Of a DNA stretch of 40,176 nt, positions 798 to 35,699 are shown one piece after another (the first letter of the stretch is position 1; each line of letters starts with the position of its first letter). The position numbers and the translations under genes were made by a program. The notes under the pieces are model-generated. The model searched no databases and had not been told where the DNA came from. It saw nothing but the letters and a program-made list of their open reading frames with translations. The stretch lies in IMG/VR virus record IMGVR_UViG_2698536646_000014, one strand, 5' to 3'. Source of the DNA: a virus (Duplodnaviria > Heunggongvirae > Uroviricota > Caudoviricetes).

Positions 798-3700
798 TAT
801 GCAAGCCTCACAATATAGTTAAATGCGATGTTTTTGACGGTGTTTTCCGCGTTACCCGCAGCGTTAACGGTGATGGTATGTCCATGTGAACCAATCGCAA
901 CGGAGTGCGTATGAGCACCAATACCGACAGTATGCGCGTGTGCACCTGCAGATGCTGCTGTGCCGGACAGTGAATGGCTATGATTACCATCTATACTGGT
1001 ATTCGCTAACCACCCCGTAGACATACCTACTGAGCCTTGTACACCCCAGGTATTTTGACCTGAGCTNNNNNNNNNNNNNNNNNNNNNNNNNNNNNNNNNN
1101 NNNNNNNNNNNNNNNNNNNNNNNNNNNNNNNNNNNNNNNNNNNNNNNNNNNNNNNNNNNNNNNNNNNNNNNNNNNNNNNNNNNNNNNNNNNNNNNNNNNN
1201 NNNNNNNNNNNNNNNNNNNNNNNNNNNNNNNNNNNNNNNNNNNNNNNNNNNNNNNNNNNNNNNNNNNNNNNNNNNNNNNNNNNNNNNNNNNNNNNNNNNN
1301 NNNNNNNNNNNNNNNNNNNNNNNNNNNNNNNNNNNNNNNNNNNNNNNNNNNNNNNNNNNNNNNNNNNNNNNNNNNNNNNNNNNNNNNNNNNNNNNNNNNN
1401 NNNNNNNNNNNNNNNNNNNNNNNNNNNNNNNNNNNNNNNNNNNNNNNNNNNNNNNNNNNNNNNNNNNNNNNNNNNNNNNNNNNNNNNNNNNNNNNNNNNN
1501 NNNNNNNNNNNNNNNNNNNNNNNNNNNNNNNNNNNNNNNNNNNNNNNNNNNNNNNNNNNNNNNNNNNNNNTAAGTATCTTTAAAAACACTGGGGTTAAAT
1601 CGACGGCCATCTCTATGGCTGTGATTACCAGCTGCATTCGTGCTGCCACTTAAACTATGGGTATGCGCACCAGTGTTATTCGTGGATTTAGTGCCGTAAT
1701 CAAACGACGATGTGGTTTTCGTCCCCAAATCCGTACTGGATGCGCTGGCGCTGTGGGTATGCGATTTAATGCCGTCCTGTTCCTGAGACAATACGGCCCG
1801 ACCACTGGCAGGTTTGCCCTTAATCGTCCAGCCACGCATATCAGGGATCACGCCTGACGGATAAGCCGCTGCAAGTTTCGGGTATGCAGATTTGTCAAAA
1901 GCCTGCCCCTGCATCAGGGCATAGCCAGACGGAACGGTATCTGATGGCCACGGGATTGGTGCGCCAGGCGGATAAAACTGCTCTGATGGCGTATAGAGTG
2001 AATAAACTGTACCGTCCGTTAACCCTTCCGGCTTATTAGCAGAATATGCTGGTGACGTATGAATCGTCACGCTGGCATTACTGGTATAATCCCATTGAAT
2101 ATTTACACCAGTCGCATAATTTCCGATTGCAACGTAAATATCGTAAGTATCACCAGATGTATTAACCCAGGCAAAATTTGTAAACCCTGTCAATGTGCGC
2201 TGCCATAAAGCACCAGTAATCCCCTTCGGATTACCATTACCTGCACGTAAAACAAGTTCAGATATACCTGCCTGTTGAGGTGACCCCACGTTAAATCCAG
2301 CGCCACCAATCAACGTAATTGAAACAACAGAACTCGCCTGTGGCATGGTTACCGTTGCTAATTTGAACCAACCAGCACCACCGCTGAATGACATTGTTGT
2401 TGAGTTAAGCGTACCAATATCTTTCGGCGTCAGTGTTATATCCGCTGAAAGCGCCTTACCATTCACCTTACGGGCAGAAGGTACCCGACCATTCGCATTG
2501 TCATTAGCTGCTTTCACTGCTTTCGGTGTCGCAGCAAGCGTTTCAGATGTGCTGTTGGTTGCACTACTGAGCTGGACAATTCCTTTTTGTGCTGTCGTAG
2601 CGTCCTGTGCGGTGTATTTCCCGTTAGCCAGGTCATACGCGGCCTTAACGGCTTTTGGCGTTGCCGCCTGTGACTCGGAAGTGCTGTTAGTCGCACTGCT
2701 GAGCTGAACTATCCCTTTCTGTGCTGTCGTTGCATCCTGTGCGGTGTATTTCCCGTTAGCCAGGTCATACGCGGCCTTAACGGCTTTTGGCGTTGCCGCC
2801 TGTGACTCGGAAGTGCTGTTGGTCGCACTGCTGAGCTGTACTATCCCCTTTTTCGTCGTGCTCGCATCCTCAAGCGCCACGGCGGATGCAATATCCTCTG
2901 CCCGTTTTGCTGCTGTCTCGGCGCGCGTTGCCGCGGATTCCGCCGTACTTTTGCTCTGTGCTGCCGCTGCCGCACTGCCAGCAGCCTCTGTCGCCTTCGT
3001 GGATGCCGTCGTGGCGCTGCCCCTCGCTGCTGACGCCTGTCTGGTCGCCTCATCTTTTGAAGCAGACGCAGATGATGCCGATGACGCCGCCGAACTGGCG
3101 GACGATGCGGCAGCCGTTTTTGAGGATTCTGCGCTGGTTTCCGACGCTTTCGCGTTCGTTTCGGATGTCTTCGCTGCGGAAGCAGACCTCGCTGCTGCGC
3201 TGGCCTGTTCAGTGGCTTCGCCAGCCTTCGTTGTGGCTGTTGAAGCGGATGATGCGGCGCTTTCTGCCGATTTTCCGGCGGCGGTGGCACTGACTGCTGC
3301 CTCCTCTGCCTTAATGGACGCCTCACGGGCCGATGATGCAGCTGCTGTCTCAGAGTCTGCCGCAGCTGAGGCGCTCTGTTCCGCTGCCGTTTCAGAAGAC
3401 TTAGCATTCGTCTCGGACGTTTTTGCCGCCTTCACGGAATTTCCTGCCGCCGTTGCCGAGGAGGCTGCACTGCTGGCGCTTGTGGAGGCGTTCGTTTCTG
3501 ATGATTTTGCCGCCTCTTTGGAGGCCGCCGCATCTCTGGCTGAAGTGGCGGCTTCTGACGCTTTCGTTGTCGCAGTGGATGCAGAAGTGGCTGCTGATTT
3601 TTGTGACGCTGCAGCATTCGTTTCTGACGTTTTCGCCGCACCGGCACTGGTGGCCGCCGCGCTTTTTGAGGACTCTGCAGCGGCAGCACTTTTTGATGCT

Positions 3701-20736: not shown

Positions 20737-22835
20737 AACCATCCTCCGGAAGTCAGCCAGGGGTTAACATCGTCAGTTACTGTTTTCTTCCGTTTTTGTT
20801 TTTTAACAGGCGTGGATACCGGTTCCGGTGAGGGTGACGGTTCGGTACTGTCCGGGACACACTCCAGCCAGGTTTCCCGGCTCGCCCACTCCGGTGCATC
20901 CGGCCAGCGGATCTTTTCGTATCCATGCAGAATGACCAGAGCCTCGGCATACACCATCAGGTCAAAAGCTTCGTTGGCACCGCGACCCGGCTTACTCCAT
21001 TTCCCGTCACTGCTCCGCTCTTCATACGTCAGTTCGTCGTAAAACCAGCTCCCCAGCCAGTCAGGGAAATGCACATAGCCGGGACCTGGCGAGTCACGCC
21101 ATAACGCGTTATTCACCCGGTCTTTCAGTGCATCCGTCTGAAGAAGCCAGAGCGGCACATCACCTGCGGCCTGCGCCCGTCGGCCCGTTCGTCCGGTGTT
21201 ATCAGGGAATGTACGGGTGATCAGTTTTGCGCGCCGGATGCTGTCGCCCTTAAACAGGTAAATACGTTTACCAAGGCCATCACGACGGCAACGACGCCAG
21301 AATTTATAGGCATTATCAGTGACCCCGTCTTCACCGCCGGAGTCCACCGCCATTGCCATCAGTCGCATTTGTTGAGAAGGATCGGAGGCCAGCGGCCAGC
21401 TTTTATGAAAAACATCCGTCAGCAGGACATCCCAGTCTTCCGGATAGCTGGCCGGATCAATTCGCTGGCTCTCCCCGTCGCTGTCACCGCGCAATGACTG
21501 CGTGATGTTGTAACGATCAATAATCCAGCGTTCGCCACGGCTGCCATAGCCCGTTACCTGAACCACAAAACGGCGATGACGTCCCGCCTGCACATCCACT
21601 GTCGCCACAAGGAAATTAACGCCATCCGGCACACTGCGGGAAGGAACTGGCTCTGCCCGCTGCTCAAGCAGTTCACTTTTTCGTTGCTCCATGCTGGCGC
21701 GGGGAAGATAAGGTAATCCCCAGTCGGTATTGATAACCGTCTTGAGTGTTTCTTCACTTCCGGTTGTCTCGTATTCCTGTTCTGCAGTAAGCAGTTTGTA
21801 AACGAGTTGCGAGAGTGTCTGGTAAGCAGCTGCCGGACCCTCCATCCAGAATGACGCAATACGTGAGCGTCGGGGATCACCATAACGACTGCCATCCGCA
21901 TTGATGGATTCACCATCCCGCAACCAGACCCCACGTCCGTTCAGCTCACGTTTGTGTTCAGGCATAATCCGTCCTGAACAGGAAGGACACTGAATATAAG
22001 CCGCCTCACTTGCCAGCACGGGATCGGCAATATCACGGAAACCAGCAACCACATCGCCGCAGGGCTGAAAATACTCACCACAGTGTGGACAGGGCCAGTA
22101 CCAGCGACGGCGATCGCCACGGTTATAGAGCGACAGTATCCCCGTGGTTGGTGGAGCCTCATGCGGTGAAGTCCGTCGCCATTTCACATCCTTCACATCC
22201 CTGCCGGGGGAACTCTCCACAAGCGTCATACCACTGGACATAAATGTTGTGGTACGTTTTGAGGCAAGAGAGAAAGCATCCCCCTCGCCATCAATATCTT
22301 CCGGAAAACGGTCATAATCCGTCAGCGCGACGCATTTATAATCTGATGAGGACATGATATTGACTGACGGCCAGCCGATTTTCAGGTAGTTACCAGCAAG
22401 GAATGTTCTGTCATAAACGTTGTTGTCATTTTTGTTCGGACTCAGGCGACTGACCACTTCCGGGCTGACGCGAAACGTTCTGGCGAGTCGTTTTTTGGAG
22501 TGTTCGCGGGCTTTTTCCTCCGTCATCTGAATGATCAGCATATCAGCAGGATCGCAAATCACGTTGTAAATCACCCAGCCGTCAATCAGGCCGATAGTCT
22601 TGCCGGTTCGTGCCGGGCCAACAAATATCACTGCGTCGTATTCACGCGAGGCCAGGCAGTTCATCGGCTCAATAACATACGGTGCCACCAGCGGATCCCA
22701 CGGGACTGAGTTCCCTGCCCCCATGGGCACCCGCATATACTGAGCAACGGCATCAGCAACCCGCATTCGTCTCGGTGCGCGAAGGATATAACCTGAATCG
22801 GTTCGTGCTGCCTTTGCGGTTTCCTGATTCAGCAT
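20733..22835 (-). CDS. terminase large subunit (gpA family)
   Basis: 700-aa ORF with Walker-A-like GPARTGKT and a CPHCGE zinc-finger-like motif resembling lambda gpA CPHCGEE; follows the small-subunit gene. Confidence 0.85.
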   Translation of the reverse strand: MLNQETAKAARTDSGYILRAPRRMRVADAVAQYMRVPMGAGNSVPWDPLVAPYVIEPMNCLASREYDAVIFVGPARTGKTIGLIDGWVIYNVICDPADMLIIQMTEEKAREHSKKRLARTFRVSPEVVSRLSPNKNDNNVYDRTFLAGNYLKIGWPSVNIMSSSDYKCVALTDYDRFPEDIDGEGDAFSLASKRTTTFMSSGMTLVESSPGRDVKDVKWRRTSPHEAPPTTGILSLYNRGDRRRWYWPCPHCGEYFQPCGDVVAGFRDIADPVLASEAAYIQCPSCSGRIMPEHKRELNGRGVWLRDGESINADGSRYGDPRRSRIASFWMEGPAAAYQTLSQLVYKLLTAEQEYETTGSEETLKTVINTDWGLPYLPRASMEQRKSELLEQRAEPVPSRSVPDGVNFLVATVDVQAGRHRRFVVQVTGYGSRGERWIIDRYNITQSLRGDSDGESQRIDPASYPEDWDVLLTDVFHKSWPLASDPSQQMRLMAMAVDSGGEDGVTDNAYKFWRRCRRDGLGKRIYLFKGDSIRRAKLITRTFPDNTGRTGRRAQAAGDVPLWLLQTDALKDRVNNALWRDSPGPGYVHFPDWLGSWFYDELTYEERSSDGKWSKPGRGANEAFDLMVYAEALVILHGYEKIRWPDAPEWASRETWLECVPDSTEPSPSPEPVSTPVKKQKRKKTVTDDVNPWLTSGGWL

Positions 22836-23329
22836 TACTCCTCCTGCTGTAATTCCTCCTCATCATCCGCACCTGCTTCAGTCACCCGCAGGGCTATCTG
22901 ATCGCGCAGATCATCAATAATGGACTGAACACGGCTCACAGCGGCAGGCTGCAGACCGCAGTCACGTTCCAGAATATCCGGTAATGTCTCCAGCACCTGC
23001 ACGACCGCTTTTGCCCAGATGGCAAACTCCCGTCTGACATCACTGGCCGGAATGAGTTGTGCCGTTTCCTGTTCGAACTTAAGACGCTCACGTTCAGACT
23101 GATACCAGGCTTTGCGCTCATGCGCGTCCATTTCGCCTTCTGCAACCGGCGGTGGCAATGCCAGAAATGCCGACACAATATCAACCACCCGATAAAGCTT
23201 GAGGTTGCTTTCATGCCCCCCTGCAACGGGTAGATTTTGCAGCCTTGCCGCAGCAGTCTGGCGATGTACACCTGACAGTGCCGCCAGTTGACTGATATTC
23301 AGCGTCAGATTTTTTAACTCTCGATCCAT
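22835..23329 (-). CDS. terminase small subunit (Nu1-like)
   Basis: 164-aa ORF with N-terminal HTH-like segment (LNISQLAALSGVHRQT) and acidic C-terminus; immediately downstream of cos; TAATG overlap with large subunit start. Confidence 0.75.
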   Translation of the reverse strand: MDRELKNLTLNISQLAALSGVHRQTAAARLQNLPVAGGHESNLKLYRVVDIVSAFLALPPPVAEGEMDAHERKAWYQSERERLKFEQETAQLIPASDVRREFAIWAKAVVQVLETLPDILERDCGLQPAAVSRVQSIIDDLRDQIALRVTEAGADDEEELQQEE

Positions 23330-23479
23330 ACCCGCTCCAGAATGTTTTAAACATGCATCTCGCGAACAACTTTAGGCAAACGGTGTTAGTGATGAACAAA
23401 AAACAATCAAAATCGACACCATAAAAACAAAACCACTGTAATATCAATCTATTACAGTGGTGGTGATGACGAATGAAAT

Positions 23480-25481: not shown

Positions 25482-26534
25482 TTATTTCCCCACCAGCTCG
25501 TTTATCTCTTTCACTGTCTGATTAAACCGCTCTGACTCAAGCTCAACACCTAAGGCCCGACGCCCCAGCGCCATTGCTGCTTTTATTGTGGAACCGGATC
25601 CCATAAAAAAATCAGCAACCAGATCACCTGGTCGACTACTGGCATTGATTATTTGCCTGAGCATATCCGCCGGTTTCTCACACGGATGTTTCCCCGGGTA
25701 GAACTGAACGGGTTTATGCATCCAGACATCGGTATAAGGCACGGAGACTGATACGGAGAAATAGCGCCGGAGAGATTTAAACTCATCCAGCAATTCAGAA
25801 TATTTACGATTCAGTGAATCATAAGATGCCACCAGCTGGTGGTGTGGTTGTTCCAGTTGTTGTTCCTGAAACTTCTCTGCCGCTATACGGGAAAACAGTG
25901 CCTGTAACTTCCGATAGTCAGCCTCATTCGGCAACTGCCACTGACTGGCACCAAACCAGTGGGAAACCATATTTTTCTTACCTGTGGCTTCGGCAATTTG
26001 TTTTGCCGTTATACCCAGTTCGGCACGAGCATCCCTGAAATACGATATCAGCGGTGCCATTATGTGCTGTTTGAGTTCCCTTTCTTTTGCCGCATAGCCG
26101 TCACTTTTGCCGCGATATGGCCCCTGGTAATGTTCAGCAAACAGAACGCGCTCTGTGGCAGGAAAATATGCGCGCAGACTTTCTTTATTACACCCATTCC
26201 AACGTCCGGACGGCTTCGCCCAGATGATATGGTTAAGCACGTTGAAACGTTCACGCATCATGATCTCAATATCAGATGCCAGGCGATGCCCACAGAACAG
26301 GTAAAGGCTTCCGGCAGGTTTCAACACCCGCCAGAACTGGGCCAGACAGTGGTCCAGCCACTTAAGGTAATCTTCGTCCCCTTTCCACTGATTGTCCCAA
26401 CCGTTGGGTTTCACCTTGAAGTAAGGCGGATCGGTAACAATCAGGTCAATGGAATCATCAGGCAGGGACTGAATAAAATGCAGGCAATCAGCGTTGATTA
26501 AATCAACACTGTTTATTTTTACAGTATTTTTCAT
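25482..26534 (-). CDS. orphan DNA methyltransferase (beta-class amino-MTase; probably N6-adenine)
   Basis: 350-aa ORF with motif IV DPPY near the N-terminus ([11 protein letters not shown]) and motif I FxGxG near the C-terminus (DFFMGSGST); no adjacent restriction gene. Confidence 0.8.
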
Positions 26535-30408: not shown

Positions 30409-30798
30409 TCAGGCGGCTGCACCCGCCGGTTTCTCATACTTACTGATAGTGATCTCGACCTTCCCTTTCTGGATAACCGGTCCCCACTCCACCAGCATTC
30501 TTTTCACCTGGCTGTCGTCTTCCCACACCCCCGCGTGGGTCAGGGCGTCAAACAGCGCCTTGTTATAGTTGTCCAGATCGCGGATCCGGTTATCCGGAGG
30601 AAACAACACGATCTCCACTGAAGCAGGTGCCGACGTTGGTTTTGGCAGACGACGTAACTGCTCAACTATTGCTGCGCACGCCGCGCTCTGAAATTTTCGC
30701 CCCGCCGCGCTTATCAGGCTCTTACCAGCAAATGCCCCTTTGTTGGGGTGTCGCCAGTACGTGTTCACGCTGGGCGGGAAAGGCAGGATCAGCTTCAT
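30409..30798 (-). CDS. rusA: Holliday junction resolvase RusA
   Basis: 129-aa ORF with PPSVNTYWRH and RDLDNYNKALFDALTHAGVWEDD motifs, like DLP12 RusA (PPSNNRYYRH, RRDLDNLQKAAFDAL). Confidence 0.85.
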   Translation of the reverse strand: MKLILPFPPSVNTYWRHPNKGAFAGKSLISAAGRKFQSAACAAIVEQLRRLPKPTSAPASVEIVLFPPDNRIRDLDNYNKALFDALTHAGVWEDDSQVKRMLVEWGPVIQKGKVEITISKYEKPAGAAA

Positions 30799-31121
30799 AC
30801 TTTCAGGCCTCTCTCATGTAACCAGTGGGTTGCACGCAGCCTGGCGTTTTCCTCACCGGCAAGCAGTGAGCGGATAATCCCGACCGCCTCGCTGTCGTCG
30901 TCCTTCACCGCGGTATGAAGAGTGATACCCCGGGCCATGCCACGCTTTATCGTGATGACGCCTTTTTTCTCCAGTGCGCGAAGATGTTCCACCGCTGCAT
31001 TCACTGAACGGTATCCCAGCATGGTTGCCACCTCCTGATTGGTTGGCGGGAAGCCACGTTCTTTCTGGTAAGAAATCAGCATATCCAGCACCTGCTGCTG
31101 GCATTGAGTTAACGTCGTCAT
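30795..31121 (-). CDS. LexA N-terminal DNA-binding-domain homologue lacking the S24 peptidase domain
   Basis: 108-aa ORF: ...LTQCQQQVLDMLISYQKERGFPPTNQEVATMLGYRSVNAAVEHLRALEKKGVITIKRG..., versus LexA ...[55 protein letters not shown]. ATGA overlaps on both sides. Confidence 0.65.
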   Translation of the reverse strand: MTTLTQCQQQVLDMLISYQKERGFPPTNQEVATMLGYRSVNAAVEHLRALEKKGVITIKRGMARGITLHTAVKDDDSEAVGIIRSLLAGEENARLRATHWLHERGLKV

Positions 31122-31771
31122 GCCGCCATCTCCCTGACCAGTTTTTCCGCCTGCTGGCGAACCTGCGCCAGAAACGCCTCACCACATGCCTCAAGTTCAT
31201 CGCGCCCGATGTAGCTGATTGCCGGTCCCTTCCAGGTCTTGTCGAAAACAGCAATAGCACCAGCGAAGAAAGCGCCTGTCGGCACCTGCTTCTCGTCCTT
31301 CGGGATAAACCAGGCAGGCAGTTCAAAACCAATACGCCCGCGAATAAAAGCAATATGATCTGCATCTTCCGGCCACCACACTTCGCTGGTGGCAGCTTTG
31401 ATCAGGAAAACATAGCGTCCGCCCTTATCACGCATGGCACTGGCATGTTTCATGATGTAACGCATGCCGGTGATGTATTGCCCTTCATGCTGACTGGCGC
31501 GGCTGTACGGGGGATTACCAAAGGCAGCACCTTTAAGCTCCGCAAGACGTTCAGACCAGTCATGCGCCAGCGCGTTGTCTTCCGCAGTGTAATAAGCGGC
31601 ACATTTGGCGTTATCACCATCAGTGAACAGATCCAGAACAAACGGGCCAAACAGGGTGTTAATTCCCCAGAAAATGTTATCCGGCGTGCGCCACTGATCG
31701 CCCACTTCCTTCAGTTCATGGGCTGGTTTGTTCCGCAGCTCCACCAGCGCCTGGCAATATTTATTACTCAT
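31118..31771 (-). CDS. phage Dam-family N6-adenine DNA methyltransferase
   Basis: About 217-aa ORF with NPPYS motif (AAFGNPPYSRA); nin-region position typical of small phage Dam methylases. Confidence 0.7.
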   Translation of the reverse strand: MSNKYCQALVELRNKPAHELKEVGDQWRTPDNIFWGINTLFGPFVLDLFTDGDNAKCAAYYTAEDNALAHDWSERLAELKGAAFGNPPYSRASQHEGQYITGMRYIMKHASAMRDKGGRYVFLIKAATSEVWWPEDADHIAFIRGRIGFELPAWFIPKDEKQVPTGAFFAGAIAVFDKTWKGPAISYIGRDELEACGEAFLAQVRQQAEKLVREMAA

Positions 31772-32259
31772 TAAGCCCCCACGTAATTCCCTGACAGATA
31801 CCACTCTTCACCCGATGCAGCGCGCTTGCTGCTTTTCCGTAAGCACCGCTCACGACGCGCCAGAAAATTGTTTCGTTCTGGCTGGGAGTGGCTTTCACGG
31901 AATGCCGCCATCCACACCGTTGCAGCACGACGGTATAAGCCCCTGGACTCCAGTTCTTCCGCCTGGCGGGTCAGGCACAAAATCACCCGGGGATCGTTAG
32001 TGCCGACATAGAAATTGCGCACAGGTCTGGTTTCACGAACTGGTTGTGGTTCCGGCTCCTGCGCTCTCTCAGTCAGGCGTGGGAAATGTCTGCGTGTATC
32101 TCCTTCATAACGGTGAGCCACACGCCCACTCTGACGTAACTTGCTTGCTGACTGCAGAACGCGCTGCCGTGAGTAACCTGCAAAAGCATCCGCAATGTCT
32201 CCGGAAGTACACCCCGGATGGGCTTCAATGAATTTCTGAACTTCATTCAAAAGACTCAT
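31771..32259 (-). CDS. hypothetical protein (possible N-terminal winged-helix regulator)
   Basis: About 163-aa ORF; start ATG preceded by AGGGGGTG; no recognisable catalytic motif. Confidence 0.4.
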   Translation of the reverse strand: MSLLNEVQKFIEAHPGCTSGDIADAFAGYSRQRVLQSASKLRQSGRVAHRYEGDTRRHFPRLTERAQEPEPQPVRETRPVRNFYVGTNDPRVILCLTRQAEELESRGLYRRAATVWMAAFRESHSQPERNNFLARRERCLRKSSKRAASGEEWYLSGNYVGA

Positions 32260-32261
32260 GA

Positions 32262-33080
32262 TCACCCCCTGAATCCTGCCGGGATCTGGCTGTAGTCCAC
32301 GTTGTCGTAACTGGCTTTGAAGTACGGGTCCTCGCGTCTGGCTGCAGATACCGCAGGAACTTCCCAGAATTCTTCGAAATGACGATCCGGACCAAAGAAC
32401 GTGACAGCCTGTTTCACAAATTGTGTGCCGCTGTTACCCATCGCAGATACCCATCCCGCGTAGCGTTTCACACCTTCCAGCATGGTTTCGGGGTTTACTC
32501 CCTCATTCAAACGGGCTTTCCAGGCTTTGAAGGCTGCAGATTTTGAATTGCCACCAGCACGTTTGGGATATGCCAGCCATGCCTGCTCAAACTCCGGAGA
32601 GTATTCCGGTCGGTTTGAACGAACTCGCACGGACTCATCAACTGATGCACCAACAGCTATTGGTTCATTGACTGGTTCTTTGACTGGTTCAAAAGAGTGA
32701 CTGGTTCTGGGTGAATCTCCTGCACTACCCCCTGGTGCAACTCCTGCACTACCTGGTGAATTTGCTGCACCAGATAGTGAATTATTTGCACTACCCCCTA
32801 GTGAATCTCCTGCACCATCCAGATGAAGGAGATAGATATTACTTGAGTTACCTTTTTCACCTTTCCGGGTGACTTTTTTTACCAGCCCGGACTCACAAAG
32901 GGCCGCAATATGATTCATCACAGAACGTTTGCTAATTTCGCACTGGTCAGCAATATGCTGGTAGCTGGGCCAGCACTCACCCTGATCGCTGGCATTATCA
33001 GCCAGCTTGATCAGAACCAGTTTTCGCAATGGATTACCCACTCGAATTTTCATCGCTTTAACCATCAGCTCCATACTCAT
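32262..33080 (-). CDS. replication initiator, lambda O-like (N-terminal wHTH, internal iterons)
   Basis: N-terminal HTH region (KIRVGNPLRKLVLIKLADNASDQGECWPSYQHIADQCEISKRSVMNHIAALCESGLV), Gly/Ser/Ala-rich linker encoded by a DNA repeat array, GGAGGTG RBS. Confidence 0.6.
   Translation of the reverse strand: MSMELMVKAMKIRVGNPLRKLVLIKLADNASDQGECWPSYQHIADQCEISKRSVMNHIAALCESGLVKKVTRKGEKGNSSNIYLLHLDGAGDSLGGSANNSLSGAANSPGSAGVAPGGSAGDSPRTSHSFEPVKEPVNEPIAVGASVDESVRVRSNRPEYSPEFEQAWLAYPKRAGGNSKSAAFKAWKARLNEGVNPETMLEGVKRYAGWVSAMGNSGTQFVKQAVTFFGPDRHFEEFWEVPAVSAARREDPYFKASYDNVDYSQIPAGFRG
32660..32860. repeat. iteron-like direct repeats plus adjacent AT-rich stretch inside the initiator gene (candidate ori)
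   Basis: Repeated units tgactggttc (x3), gtgaatctcctgcac (x2), tgcactaccccct (x2), followed by agatgaaggagatagatattacttgag; same architecture as lambda ori within O. Coordinates approximate. Confidence 0.55.
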
Positions 33081-35024: not shown

Positions 35025-35699
35025 ATGAAAACAGTCCATGACATCCGGCGGTCTAACGCCAGAAAACTGAGAGATGGTGTTGGCGGGAATTCTTCCTTTG
35101 CCACCATGATTGATCGCGAGCCAACCCAGACCAGCAGGTTTATGGGAGATGGTGCAACTAAAAATATCGGTGACAGCATGGCACGGCACATCGAAAAATG
35201 TTTCGACCTGCCTGTCGGATGGCTTGATCAAGAACACCAGACAACGAACATCACAAAAAAACCTGACGTTTCAATCACTAACAAACAAATAACGTTAGTC
35301 CCTGTCATATCATGGGTACAGGCCGGAGCATGGAAAGAAGTTGGCTATTCTGAGGTTGATTTGAGCACAGCAGAAACTTATCCCTGCCCTGTACCCTGTG
35401 GCGAAATGACTTATATCTTGCGGGTGATTGGTGATTCAATGATTGATGAGTACCGCCCGGGAGACATGATTTTTGTTGATCCTGAAGTCCCTGCCTGCCA
35501 CGGTGACGACGTTATTGCATTGATGCACGATACAGGCGAAACCACCTTCAAGCGGTTGATAGAAGATGGAACACAGCGTTATCTCAAAGCATTAAACCCA
35601 AACTGGCCTGAGCCTTACATTAAGATTAACGGTAATTGCTCTATAATTGGTACAGTGATTTTCTCAGGAAAACCAAGAAGATACATAATAAAGGCCTAA
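35025..35699 (+). CDS. CI-type prophage repressor (N-terminal HTH, C-terminal S24 LexA-like peptidase)
   Basis: 224-aa ORF with C-terminal autocleavage domain: GDSM serine motif and downstream lysine (TFKRL), PGD turn. Confidence 0.85.
   Translation: MKTVHDIRRSNARKLRDGVGGNSSFATMIDREPTQTSRFMGDGATKNIGDSMARHIEKCFDLPVGWLDQEHQTTNITKKPDVSITNKQITLVPVISWVQAGAWKEVGYSEVDLSTAETYPCPVPCGEMTYILRVIGDSMIDEYRPGDMIFVDPEVPACHGDDVIALMHDTGETTFKRLIEDGTQRYLKALNPNWPEPYIKINGNCSIIGTVIFSGKPRRYIIKA

Follow-up and report, generated by a model that had tools for sequence, protein, structure and literature searches.

The 40,176-nucleotide stretch of DNA analyzed here in full (IMG/VR record IMGVR_UViG_2698536646_000014, hereafter the window) is a lambdoid Escherichia coli prophage of the e14 / CPS-53 / SfV-like kind, and it encodes a stand-alone LexA-type DNA-binding protein that we call LexN, the product of the open reading frame (ORF) at 30795..31121 on the minus strand. 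Our analysis revealed that the LexN gene is real and under purifying selection, and that its product joins a LexA-like winged helix-turn-helix (wHTH) to a conserved C-terminal helical hairpin, which occupies the place of the protease and dimerization domain in LexA. The best explanation of these features is a sequence-specific DNA-binding regulator apparently derived from proteobacterial LexA. We tentatively favor the view that LexN may bind CTGT-type half-sites and serve, during lytic growth, as a RecA*-proof surrogate for LexA, which we regard as quite possible but short of probable. The gene has already been annotated in databases, and phage-encoded LexA DNA-binding domains without a protease are a known kind; what is new here is the conserved hairpin under selection, the fixed slot among early lytic genes, the kept base contacts and the presence of one conserved strong SOS box.

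LexN is a member of Pfam PF01726 and of PHROG 362. The ORF runs from ATG to stop and its 108-amino-acid (aa) translation is MTTLTQCQQQVLDMLISYQKERGFPPTNQEVATMLGYRSVNAAVEHLRALEKKGVITIKRGMARGITLHTAVKDDDSEAVGIIRSLLAGEENARLRATHWLHERGLKV. In a Pfam search, residues 1-65 covered profile positions 1-65 of 65 of PF01726 (LexA_DNA_bind; E = 2.1e-19, 69.5 bits, cut-off 23.7), and the whole protein (residues 1-108) aligned with positions 1-106 of 106 of PHROG 362, labeled 'transcriptional repressor' (E = 4.3e-59). The E. coli LexA DNA-binding domain 1lea, found among Protein Data Bank (PDB) sequences, matched residues 2-69 (E = 8.9e-16), and a BLASTP comparison with E. coli LexA gave 43% identity over 90 residues (E = 1e-21). 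An initial annotation had aligned LexN by eye with the N-terminal domain of host LexA; the motifs it quoted (PPT, GYRS and NAAVEHLRALEKKGVI) are present exactly, and the similarity is significant in proper alignment with both PF01726 and 1lea. The structure prediction that it had proposed as a check points the same way: an AlphaFold2 (AF2) model built from an alignment of 17 family members (predicted local distance difference test, pLDDT, 83.6) superposes on LexA of the DNA complex 3jso with a root-mean-square deviation (rmsd) of 0.9-1.0 Å over 67-68 residues at 50% identity. The predicted wHTH comprises helices 6-22, 28-35 and 40-52, the last being the recognition helix (SVNAAVEHLRALE), and wing strands 56-58 and 66-68.

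The chain ends at residue 108 with no Pfam match to the S24 peptidase (PF00717), tblastn found no similarity to the LexA C-terminal domain near the gene, and the next gene encodes the resolvase RusA, all in agreement with the initial annotation that the protein stops before the peptidase. The catalytic Ser/Lys dyad of the S24 domain is without a counterpart in LexN. Residues A88-G89 of the LexN clade align with A84-G85 of LexA, lie inside a predicted helix and are not conserved across the family, so that the LexN family has no conserved Ala-Gly self-cleavage site. The curated lexA equivalog model (NCBIfam TIGR00498) scores 71.3 bits, under its cut-off of 110.95, and covers only positions 1-91 of 203. 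Since the S24 domain, the cleavage site and a passing curated score are all missing, LexN does not qualify as a strict LexA repressor, and because the chain stops before any S24 peptidase it cannot cleave itself through RecA, as had been proposed. PADLOC assigned LexN to no defense system and returned only a marginal wHTH-type match.

In describing LexN as a DNA-binding domain alone, the initial annotation was right about the LexA-type domain and wrong about its being bare, having missed a conserved helical tail of 35 aa. In the AF2 model this tail forms helices 75-88 and 93-103 (pLDDT about 90) after a floppy linker (71-74). HMMER, run in full against 1.84 billion representatives, returned relatives that match LexN end to end at 40-52% identity (P0125, P0126, P0129, P0130, P0139, P0163, P0175 and P0244). 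Throughout a 17-sequence alignment (A2), hydrophobic residues occupy positions 82, 83, 86, 87, 97, 100 and 101; A97 and L101 are invariant in the family alignments, distant relatives included, and the pattern of residues 75-108 is conserved across three clades. In the mEp390-type clade (L093), the ratio of nonsynonymous to synonymous substitution rates (dN/dS) was 0.19 over the tail, against 0.20 over the winged helix; the corresponding values in the clade of the window were 0.16 and 0.015. The tail is under purifying selection.

LexN thus belongs to a tailed family, 104-116 aa in total length, in which the wHTH is followed by a hairpin of the pattern E-A-x2-h-h-R-x-L-L ... A-R-x-R-A-x2-W-L. 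Its members are LexN, the mEp390 type, the L082 type, and proteins of Kosakonia, Enterobacter and Buttiauxella prophages; a contig profile search with a narrow pattern (8 sequences) found tailed relatives only in Shigella, Kosakonia, Buttiauxella and Enterobacter. No Pfam family matched the tail, and a profile of 11 tails run against PDB sequences gave only repeat-summed noise (designed pentatricopeptide-repeat and solenoid proteins, per-domain E about 95). The BlaI/MecI family (Rv1846c), YtrA-type GntR proteins and MntR, in which an N-terminal wHTH likewise precedes a short helical dimer tail, appeared among weak whole-chain Foldseek matches (ranks 16-46, rmsd 7-12 Å, 13-23% identity); they offer an architectural analogy, and these matches contained no evidence that the tails are homologous. 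A reading of the tail as a relic of the cleavage site or a pseudo-substrate was considered, as it aligns with LexA 71-86 including the Ala-Gly pair, and was rejected on account of the unconserved Ala-Gly in relatives and the confidently predicted amphipathic helix.

The tail matters because an isolated LexA N-terminal domain performs poorly. LexA reaches full affinity only as a dimer; DNA binding by its free N-terminal domain is 10-1000 times weaker (PMC11442139). The LexA 1-84 cleavage fragment, the natural protein closest to LexN in length, shares this weak binding and is removed by ClpXP and Lon, whereas LexN has a conserved tail of its own. Being helical, amphipathic, constrained like the wHTH and kept in three clades, the tail fits a structural role such as dimerization, and the double-width hydrophobic stripe on the modeled hairpin resembles the dimer interface of a four-helix bundle, which suggests that the hairpin may replace the C-terminal domain of LexA as the dimerizer. 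Four proteins in the representative library (P0132, P0148, P0158 and P0184) carry two tandem LexA_DNA_bind domains per chain and are apparently covalent pseudo-dimers, which would be another route to a protease-free LexA-type dimer.

The recognition surface of LexN closely follows that of LexA. According to a review of the LexA-DNA crystal structure, the main base contacts are S39, N41, A42 and E45 (PMC11442139; contact residues were taken from this and two further secondary sources, PMC3091678 and PMC13416735). In our alignments LexN retains all four, together with the wing residues R64-G65-I66, and the same residues are kept throughout the clade of the window and in most relatives at 40-50% identity. 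Retention of the LexA base contacts would be surprising in phage repressors that evolve operators of their own. Judged from these residues, SOS-box binding by LexN is plausible.

The window contains a single consensus-grade LexA box, a perfect CTGT-N8-ACAG near the start of a late methylase gene (Table 1) and about 480 nt downstream of a tR'-like terminator (27034-27015). Scored with a matrix built from 21 E. coli SOS boxes, it reaches 22.3 bits, and the highest value among 50 shuffles was 19.8. The box is kept in methylase homologs of Citrobacter phiNP, Klebsiella Kp4866-6, Morganella IME1369_02 and Providencia PSTRCR_117lys, and the peptide encoded at the box varies (KINSV vs NLNSV) while the box stays. 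Because it is preserved despite the peptide change, it probably functions as a site for host LexA at the head of the late region; we infer only that LexN could act at it as well. Strong boxes occurred in 65 of 190 related loci, compared with 3-13 in shuffled controls. Inverted repeats of CTGT/ACAG at spacings of 0-20 showed no enrichment in the window beyond the single N8 box, with non-N8 palindromes present as isolated cases only (14335 and 23435), and no operator conserved across clades, other than LexA-type boxes, was identified.

A separate near-consensus SOS box (TACTGTTTTTACATACAGTA) lies at 3043-3062 of the related locus L003, and the same box recurs in 20 related loci of LexN-bearing prophages. 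It is located within the coding sequence for the linker region of a repressor gene (2579-3271, minus strand) whose product combines a CI-type helix-turn-helix with an S24 domain.

The position of the gene indicates when LexN is likely to be made. The prophage context proposed in the initial annotation is borne out by a lambdoid gene set with its own S24-type CI, CII-like, replication, Q, lysis, terminase and tail genes. On the minus strand the order is cro-like, CII-like, Ash-family, HTH_36/DnaD_N replication gene, PerC-like, Dam-type methylase and LexN, followed by RusA, a KilA-N protein, DUF968/HNH, Q, an N6_N4 methylase, and the lysis, terminase, head and tail genes. The LexN start overlaps the Dam stop, and its stop overlaps the RusA start, each in an ATGA; a Shine-Dalgarno-like GGAG lies 8-9 nt 5' of the LexN ATG, and no sigma-70-like site was found on the coding strand from the immunity region to LexN. 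Given this position, the overlapping genes and the lack of a sigma-70-like site upstream, LexN appears to be a lytic gene of the delayed-early class whose transcription awaits CI inactivation or infection. The RecA-sensitive induction switch of the prophage is the CI-type repressor and not LexN (the CI-type gene is labeled ymfK / LexA family protein in a near-identical prophage region, L001, where LexN is 100% identical). That LexN modulates the prophage's own induction, as had been suggested, is unlikely: the gene is tightly packed, with the replication genes on one side and Q on the other, and is not directly preceded by a promoter-like site. Modulation of the host SOS response, the other effect suggested, could take place only after induction or during infection.

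Table 1 Features of the window discussed in the text, with their coordinates and the basis or location of each.
Feature	Position	Strand	Basis or location
LexN gene: stand-alone LexA-type DNA-binding protein, 108 aa	30795..31121	-	ORF, Pfam and PHROG
LexN winged helix-turn-helix, codons 1-69	30915..31121	-	AF2 secondary structure, 3jso superposition
LexN family-specific amphipathic hairpin, codons 75-108	30798..30899	-	AF2, alignment and dN/dS
Strong LexA/SOS-type box CACTGTTTATTTTTACAGTA, candidate LexN target	26507..26526		Codons 3-9 of methylase gene 25482-26534 (-)
Dam-type N6-adenine DNA methyltransferase, upstream gene	31118..31804	-	PF05869, E = 1e-45
RusA Holliday-junction resolvase, downstream gene	30409..30798	-	PF05866, E = 2.4e-15
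CI-type repressor with S24 peptidase domain	35025..35699	+	PF00717, E = 1.5e-26

The slot occupied by LexN is much the same across the 190 related loci, which fall into three clades. RusA directly follows LexN in nearly all of them, and beyond RusA lie an antirepressor (KilA-N or ANT), DUF968 and Q. The gene before LexN is usually a DNA methylase, in the form of Dam, of MT-A70 plus a 75-aa ORF, or of Dam plus a C5 methylase, and in about 30 loci a PerC gene is directly upstream instead. LexN-bearing phages differ in their early modules (methylase, antirepressor). The link between LexN and RusA is not obligatory: Salmonella phage 118970_sal3 and Yersinia YeP3 have, directly after Dam, a RusA that is 60-80% identical to that of the window, and LexN is missing beside most phage RusA genes. 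In Klebsiella phage Kp4866-6 (L218, 11369-11872, minus strand), a LexA-type winged helix is encoded between a C5 methylase and RusA; the protein is 64.7% identical to LexN over residues 1-68, has the recognition helix SPNAAATHL, and carries a different, unassigned C-terminal domain of ~90 aa in place of the hairpin.

We tentatively propose the following course of events. LexN would be made only after CI inactivation or after infection and would dimerize through its hairpin; the dimer would bind CTGT-type LexA operator half-sites and return LexA-controlled promoters to a repressed state as host LexA is broken down. Among its targets could be the SOS regulon of the host, functions under LexA control in co-resident prophages and on colicin plasmids, and the LexA boxes of the phage group itself. 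A protein that binds LexA half-sites and has no protease would, for that reason, be a LexA surrogate that RecA* cannot inactivate. Cleavage of LexA exposes a C-terminal Val-Ala-Ala degron, which makes LexA 1-84 a ClpXP substrate; LexN, which ends in ...ERGLKV, presumably lacks this signal. Wing-wing contacts between N-terminal domains are said to set the half-site spacing in the LexA-DNA structure study of Zhang et al. from 2010, and a different dimerizer could therefore still read N8 boxes. The proposal in its fullest form, a hairpin-dimerized, RecA-proof and ClpXP-proof LexA surrogate in ~40% of complete E. coli genomes that would shut the SOS regulon down again, strikes us as rather unlikely to hold in every part.

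Several observations weigh against the proposed surrogate role. E44, a DNA-contacting residue in an older LexA model based on nuclear magnetic resonance (PMC3091678, PMC13416735), is V in LexN and V, T, F, A, L or Y in the family, never E, whereas position 44 is Glu in every canonical full-length-type LexA match checked. A42 or E45 is changed in some relatives (NTIAGH in P0086, D45 in P0125, L45 in P0175, T45 in the Klebsiella variant), and family specificity is therefore not uniformly LexA-like. Phages with an SOS-boxed methylase gene exist without an annotated LexN, so that the box and LexN are not strictly linked, and dimerization through the hairpin is only inferred. Literature searches gave no paper testing the function of an enterobacterial LexN, including SfV orf42. 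Furthermore, the only characterized truncated phage LexA homolog, gp6 of the Bacillus tectivirus GIL01, reads a different palindrome (GaCACAn nTGTGaC) and activates transcription, from the late promoter P3 (PMC6182141). Since this is exactly the behavior of a phage-specific transcription factor, LexN could instead be a LexA-derived domain that has drifted to a private operator and regulates phage genes of the late or nin region rather than host SOS boxes. The changes at position 44 family-wide, and at 42 and 45 in some members, would suit such a role, as would the location of LexN just upstream of Q and the late region and the frequency of stand-alone LexA-type domains (65-150 aa) in many unrelated phages. 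We nonetheless consider a private regulator, though the main alternative, rather less likely than not: the clade of the window keeps the four main LexA base contacts, neither an enrichment of CTGT palindromes at non-N8 spacings in the window nor an operator conserved across clades came to light, and LexN is common to phages whose early modules differ.

The constancy of the neighborhood could also reflect a function other than transcription, with LexN serving as an accessory DNA-binding protein for RusA, the methyltransferase, or both, in junction resolution or methylation targeting. The placement of LexN before RusA in all three clades is consistent with this, as are the methylase of varying family that usually precedes it and the Klebsiella phage that keeps the LexA-type domain in the same slot with another C-terminal domain. 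We consider it improbable, given that related RusA genes stand directly after Dam without LexN and that most phage RusA genes lack it too, that fixed adjacency in nin regions can reflect overlapping genes inherited as a block, and that a LexA-type recognition helix with kept base contacts suggests sequence-specific operator binding. The chance that LexN works at the protein level, as a decoy whose tail binds RecA*, host LexA or phage CI and alters cleavage, seems slight: HMMER and BLASTP alignments do reach LexA residue 86 and place 'LLAGE' opposite the cleavage site 'VAAGE', but the Ala-Gly pair is replaced across the family (LANEE, VERES, LTRKE, IDDQP and others), the segment is predicted as an amphipathic helix rather than the strand-loop that LexA offers its active site, and a pure decoy would have no need of conserved DNA-contact residues. 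A truncated version of a host gene in a mosaic region might also be a decaying, functionless remnant of a captured lexA. That notion is effectively refuted by selection and conservation, as dN/dS is 0.06-0.2 over both tail and winged helix, relatives with as little as 40% identity keep the full-length architecture, the Shine-Dalgarno-like GGAG and the coupled start/stop overlaps are intact, and the gene persists nearly unchanged in thousands of complete E. coli genomes (see below).

Comparison with characterized systems places LexN between several precedents. It shares with the N-terminal domain of E. coli LexA (residues 1-69; 1lea, 3jso) the fold, about 50% identity, S39/N41/A42/E45 and the R-G-I of the wing, and differs from E. 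coli LexA in lacking the S24 peptidase/dimerization domain, the catalytic Ser/Lys and the conserved Ala-Gly, in the replacement of E44, in having a helical hairpin that LexA does not, and in its location in a phage early-lytic operon. By architecture the closest characterized analog is GIL01 gp6, which is likewise a phage-encoded LexA-type winged helix without a protease domain, is expressed early, and comes from a phage that also uses host LexA boxes, as in the setting of LexN. Unlike LexN, gp6 has only 66 aa and no helical tail, and for gp6 alone are a site and an activator role established. No BLASTP alignment between the two proteins was obtained at E <= 100, which argues for independent derivations, gp6 from a Gram-positive LexA. 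By proposed effect, the closest parallels are lexA(Ind-) alleles and GIL01 gp7. The non-cleavable Ind- mutants show RecA*-proof DNA binding, as LexN would if it binds SOS boxes, and differ from LexN in keeping the C-terminal dimerization domain. In cells with DNA damage, GIL01 gp7 prevents the LexA regulon from opening, and a prophage resident in the same cell is suppressed as a result (PMC9700832), the same outcome as that proposed for LexN and hence a functional precedent; in contrast to LexN, gp7 is a small protein that binds host LexA, is no LexA homolog and has no DNA binding of its own (PMC4551915, PMC9700832).

LexN is widespread. Its DNA was found in 2233 of 5426 complete E. coli genomes (about 40%), at up to four copies per genome, and nearly all copies had at least 95% nucleotide identity over more than 80% of the gene. 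Phages with LexN include SfV (orf42), SfII, SfIV, cdtI, mEp460, mEp390 and several Stx2a, Stx2c and Stx2k phages, among others. The RefSeq protein WP_001610361.1, which is 100% identical to LexN, is named 'LexA repressor'; the Prokaryotic Genome Annotation Pipeline also uses 'LexA family protein' and 'LexA family transcriptional regulator', and phage records add 'LexA-like', 'LexA DNA binding domain protein', 'SOS-response repressor and protease LexA' and 'RecA-mediated autopeptidases'. The last two of these, together with 'LexA repressor', overstate what the sequence supports and are wrong for a protein that lacks the protease.

Should SOS-box binding by LexN prove real, the response of the host to DNA damage would be reset, in the course of lytic growth, by a gene that is very common among prophages, with bearing on Shiga-toxin phage induction, prophage competition, colicin release and antibiotic-induced SOS mutagenesis. 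As a LexA surrogate, LexN would hold down competing prophages, SOS mutagenesis and the release of colicins during induction or infection, and possibly SOS-linked defenses too, and its carriers would include Stx2a-, Stx2c- and Stx2k-converting phages as well as Shigella serotype-converting phages. The SOS boxes in the late methylase gene and in the cI gene of related loci would then belong to the same circuit, and the master repressor of the host would have been rendered non-inducible through a swapped dimerization domain. Were LexN a private phage regulator instead, the gp6 solution would have arisen twice independently, a useful finding and not a surprising one.

Some further features of the prophage were noted along the way. 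It encodes two DNA methyltransferases, one early and Dam-type (31118-31804, PF05869) and one late and of the N6_N4 type (25482-26534, PF01555), and the Dam gene next to LexN is mislabeled 'phosphoadenosine phosphosulfate reductase' in several RefSeq phage records. Directly upstream of Dam lies a gene for a yfdN-like PerC-family protein of 164 aa (31771-32265, minus strand; PF06069, E 8e-9), which belongs to the conserved early module; in pathogenic E. coli, proteins of the PerC type activate virulence genes. A perfect 11-bp inverted repeat, CCACTGTAATA-TCAATC-TATTACAGTGG, spans 23433-23460 in an AT-rich gap just upstream of a small-terminase-like gene (22835-23329, minus strand). It contains CTGT-N14-ACAG and may be a cos- or terminase-related site or the site of a regulator.

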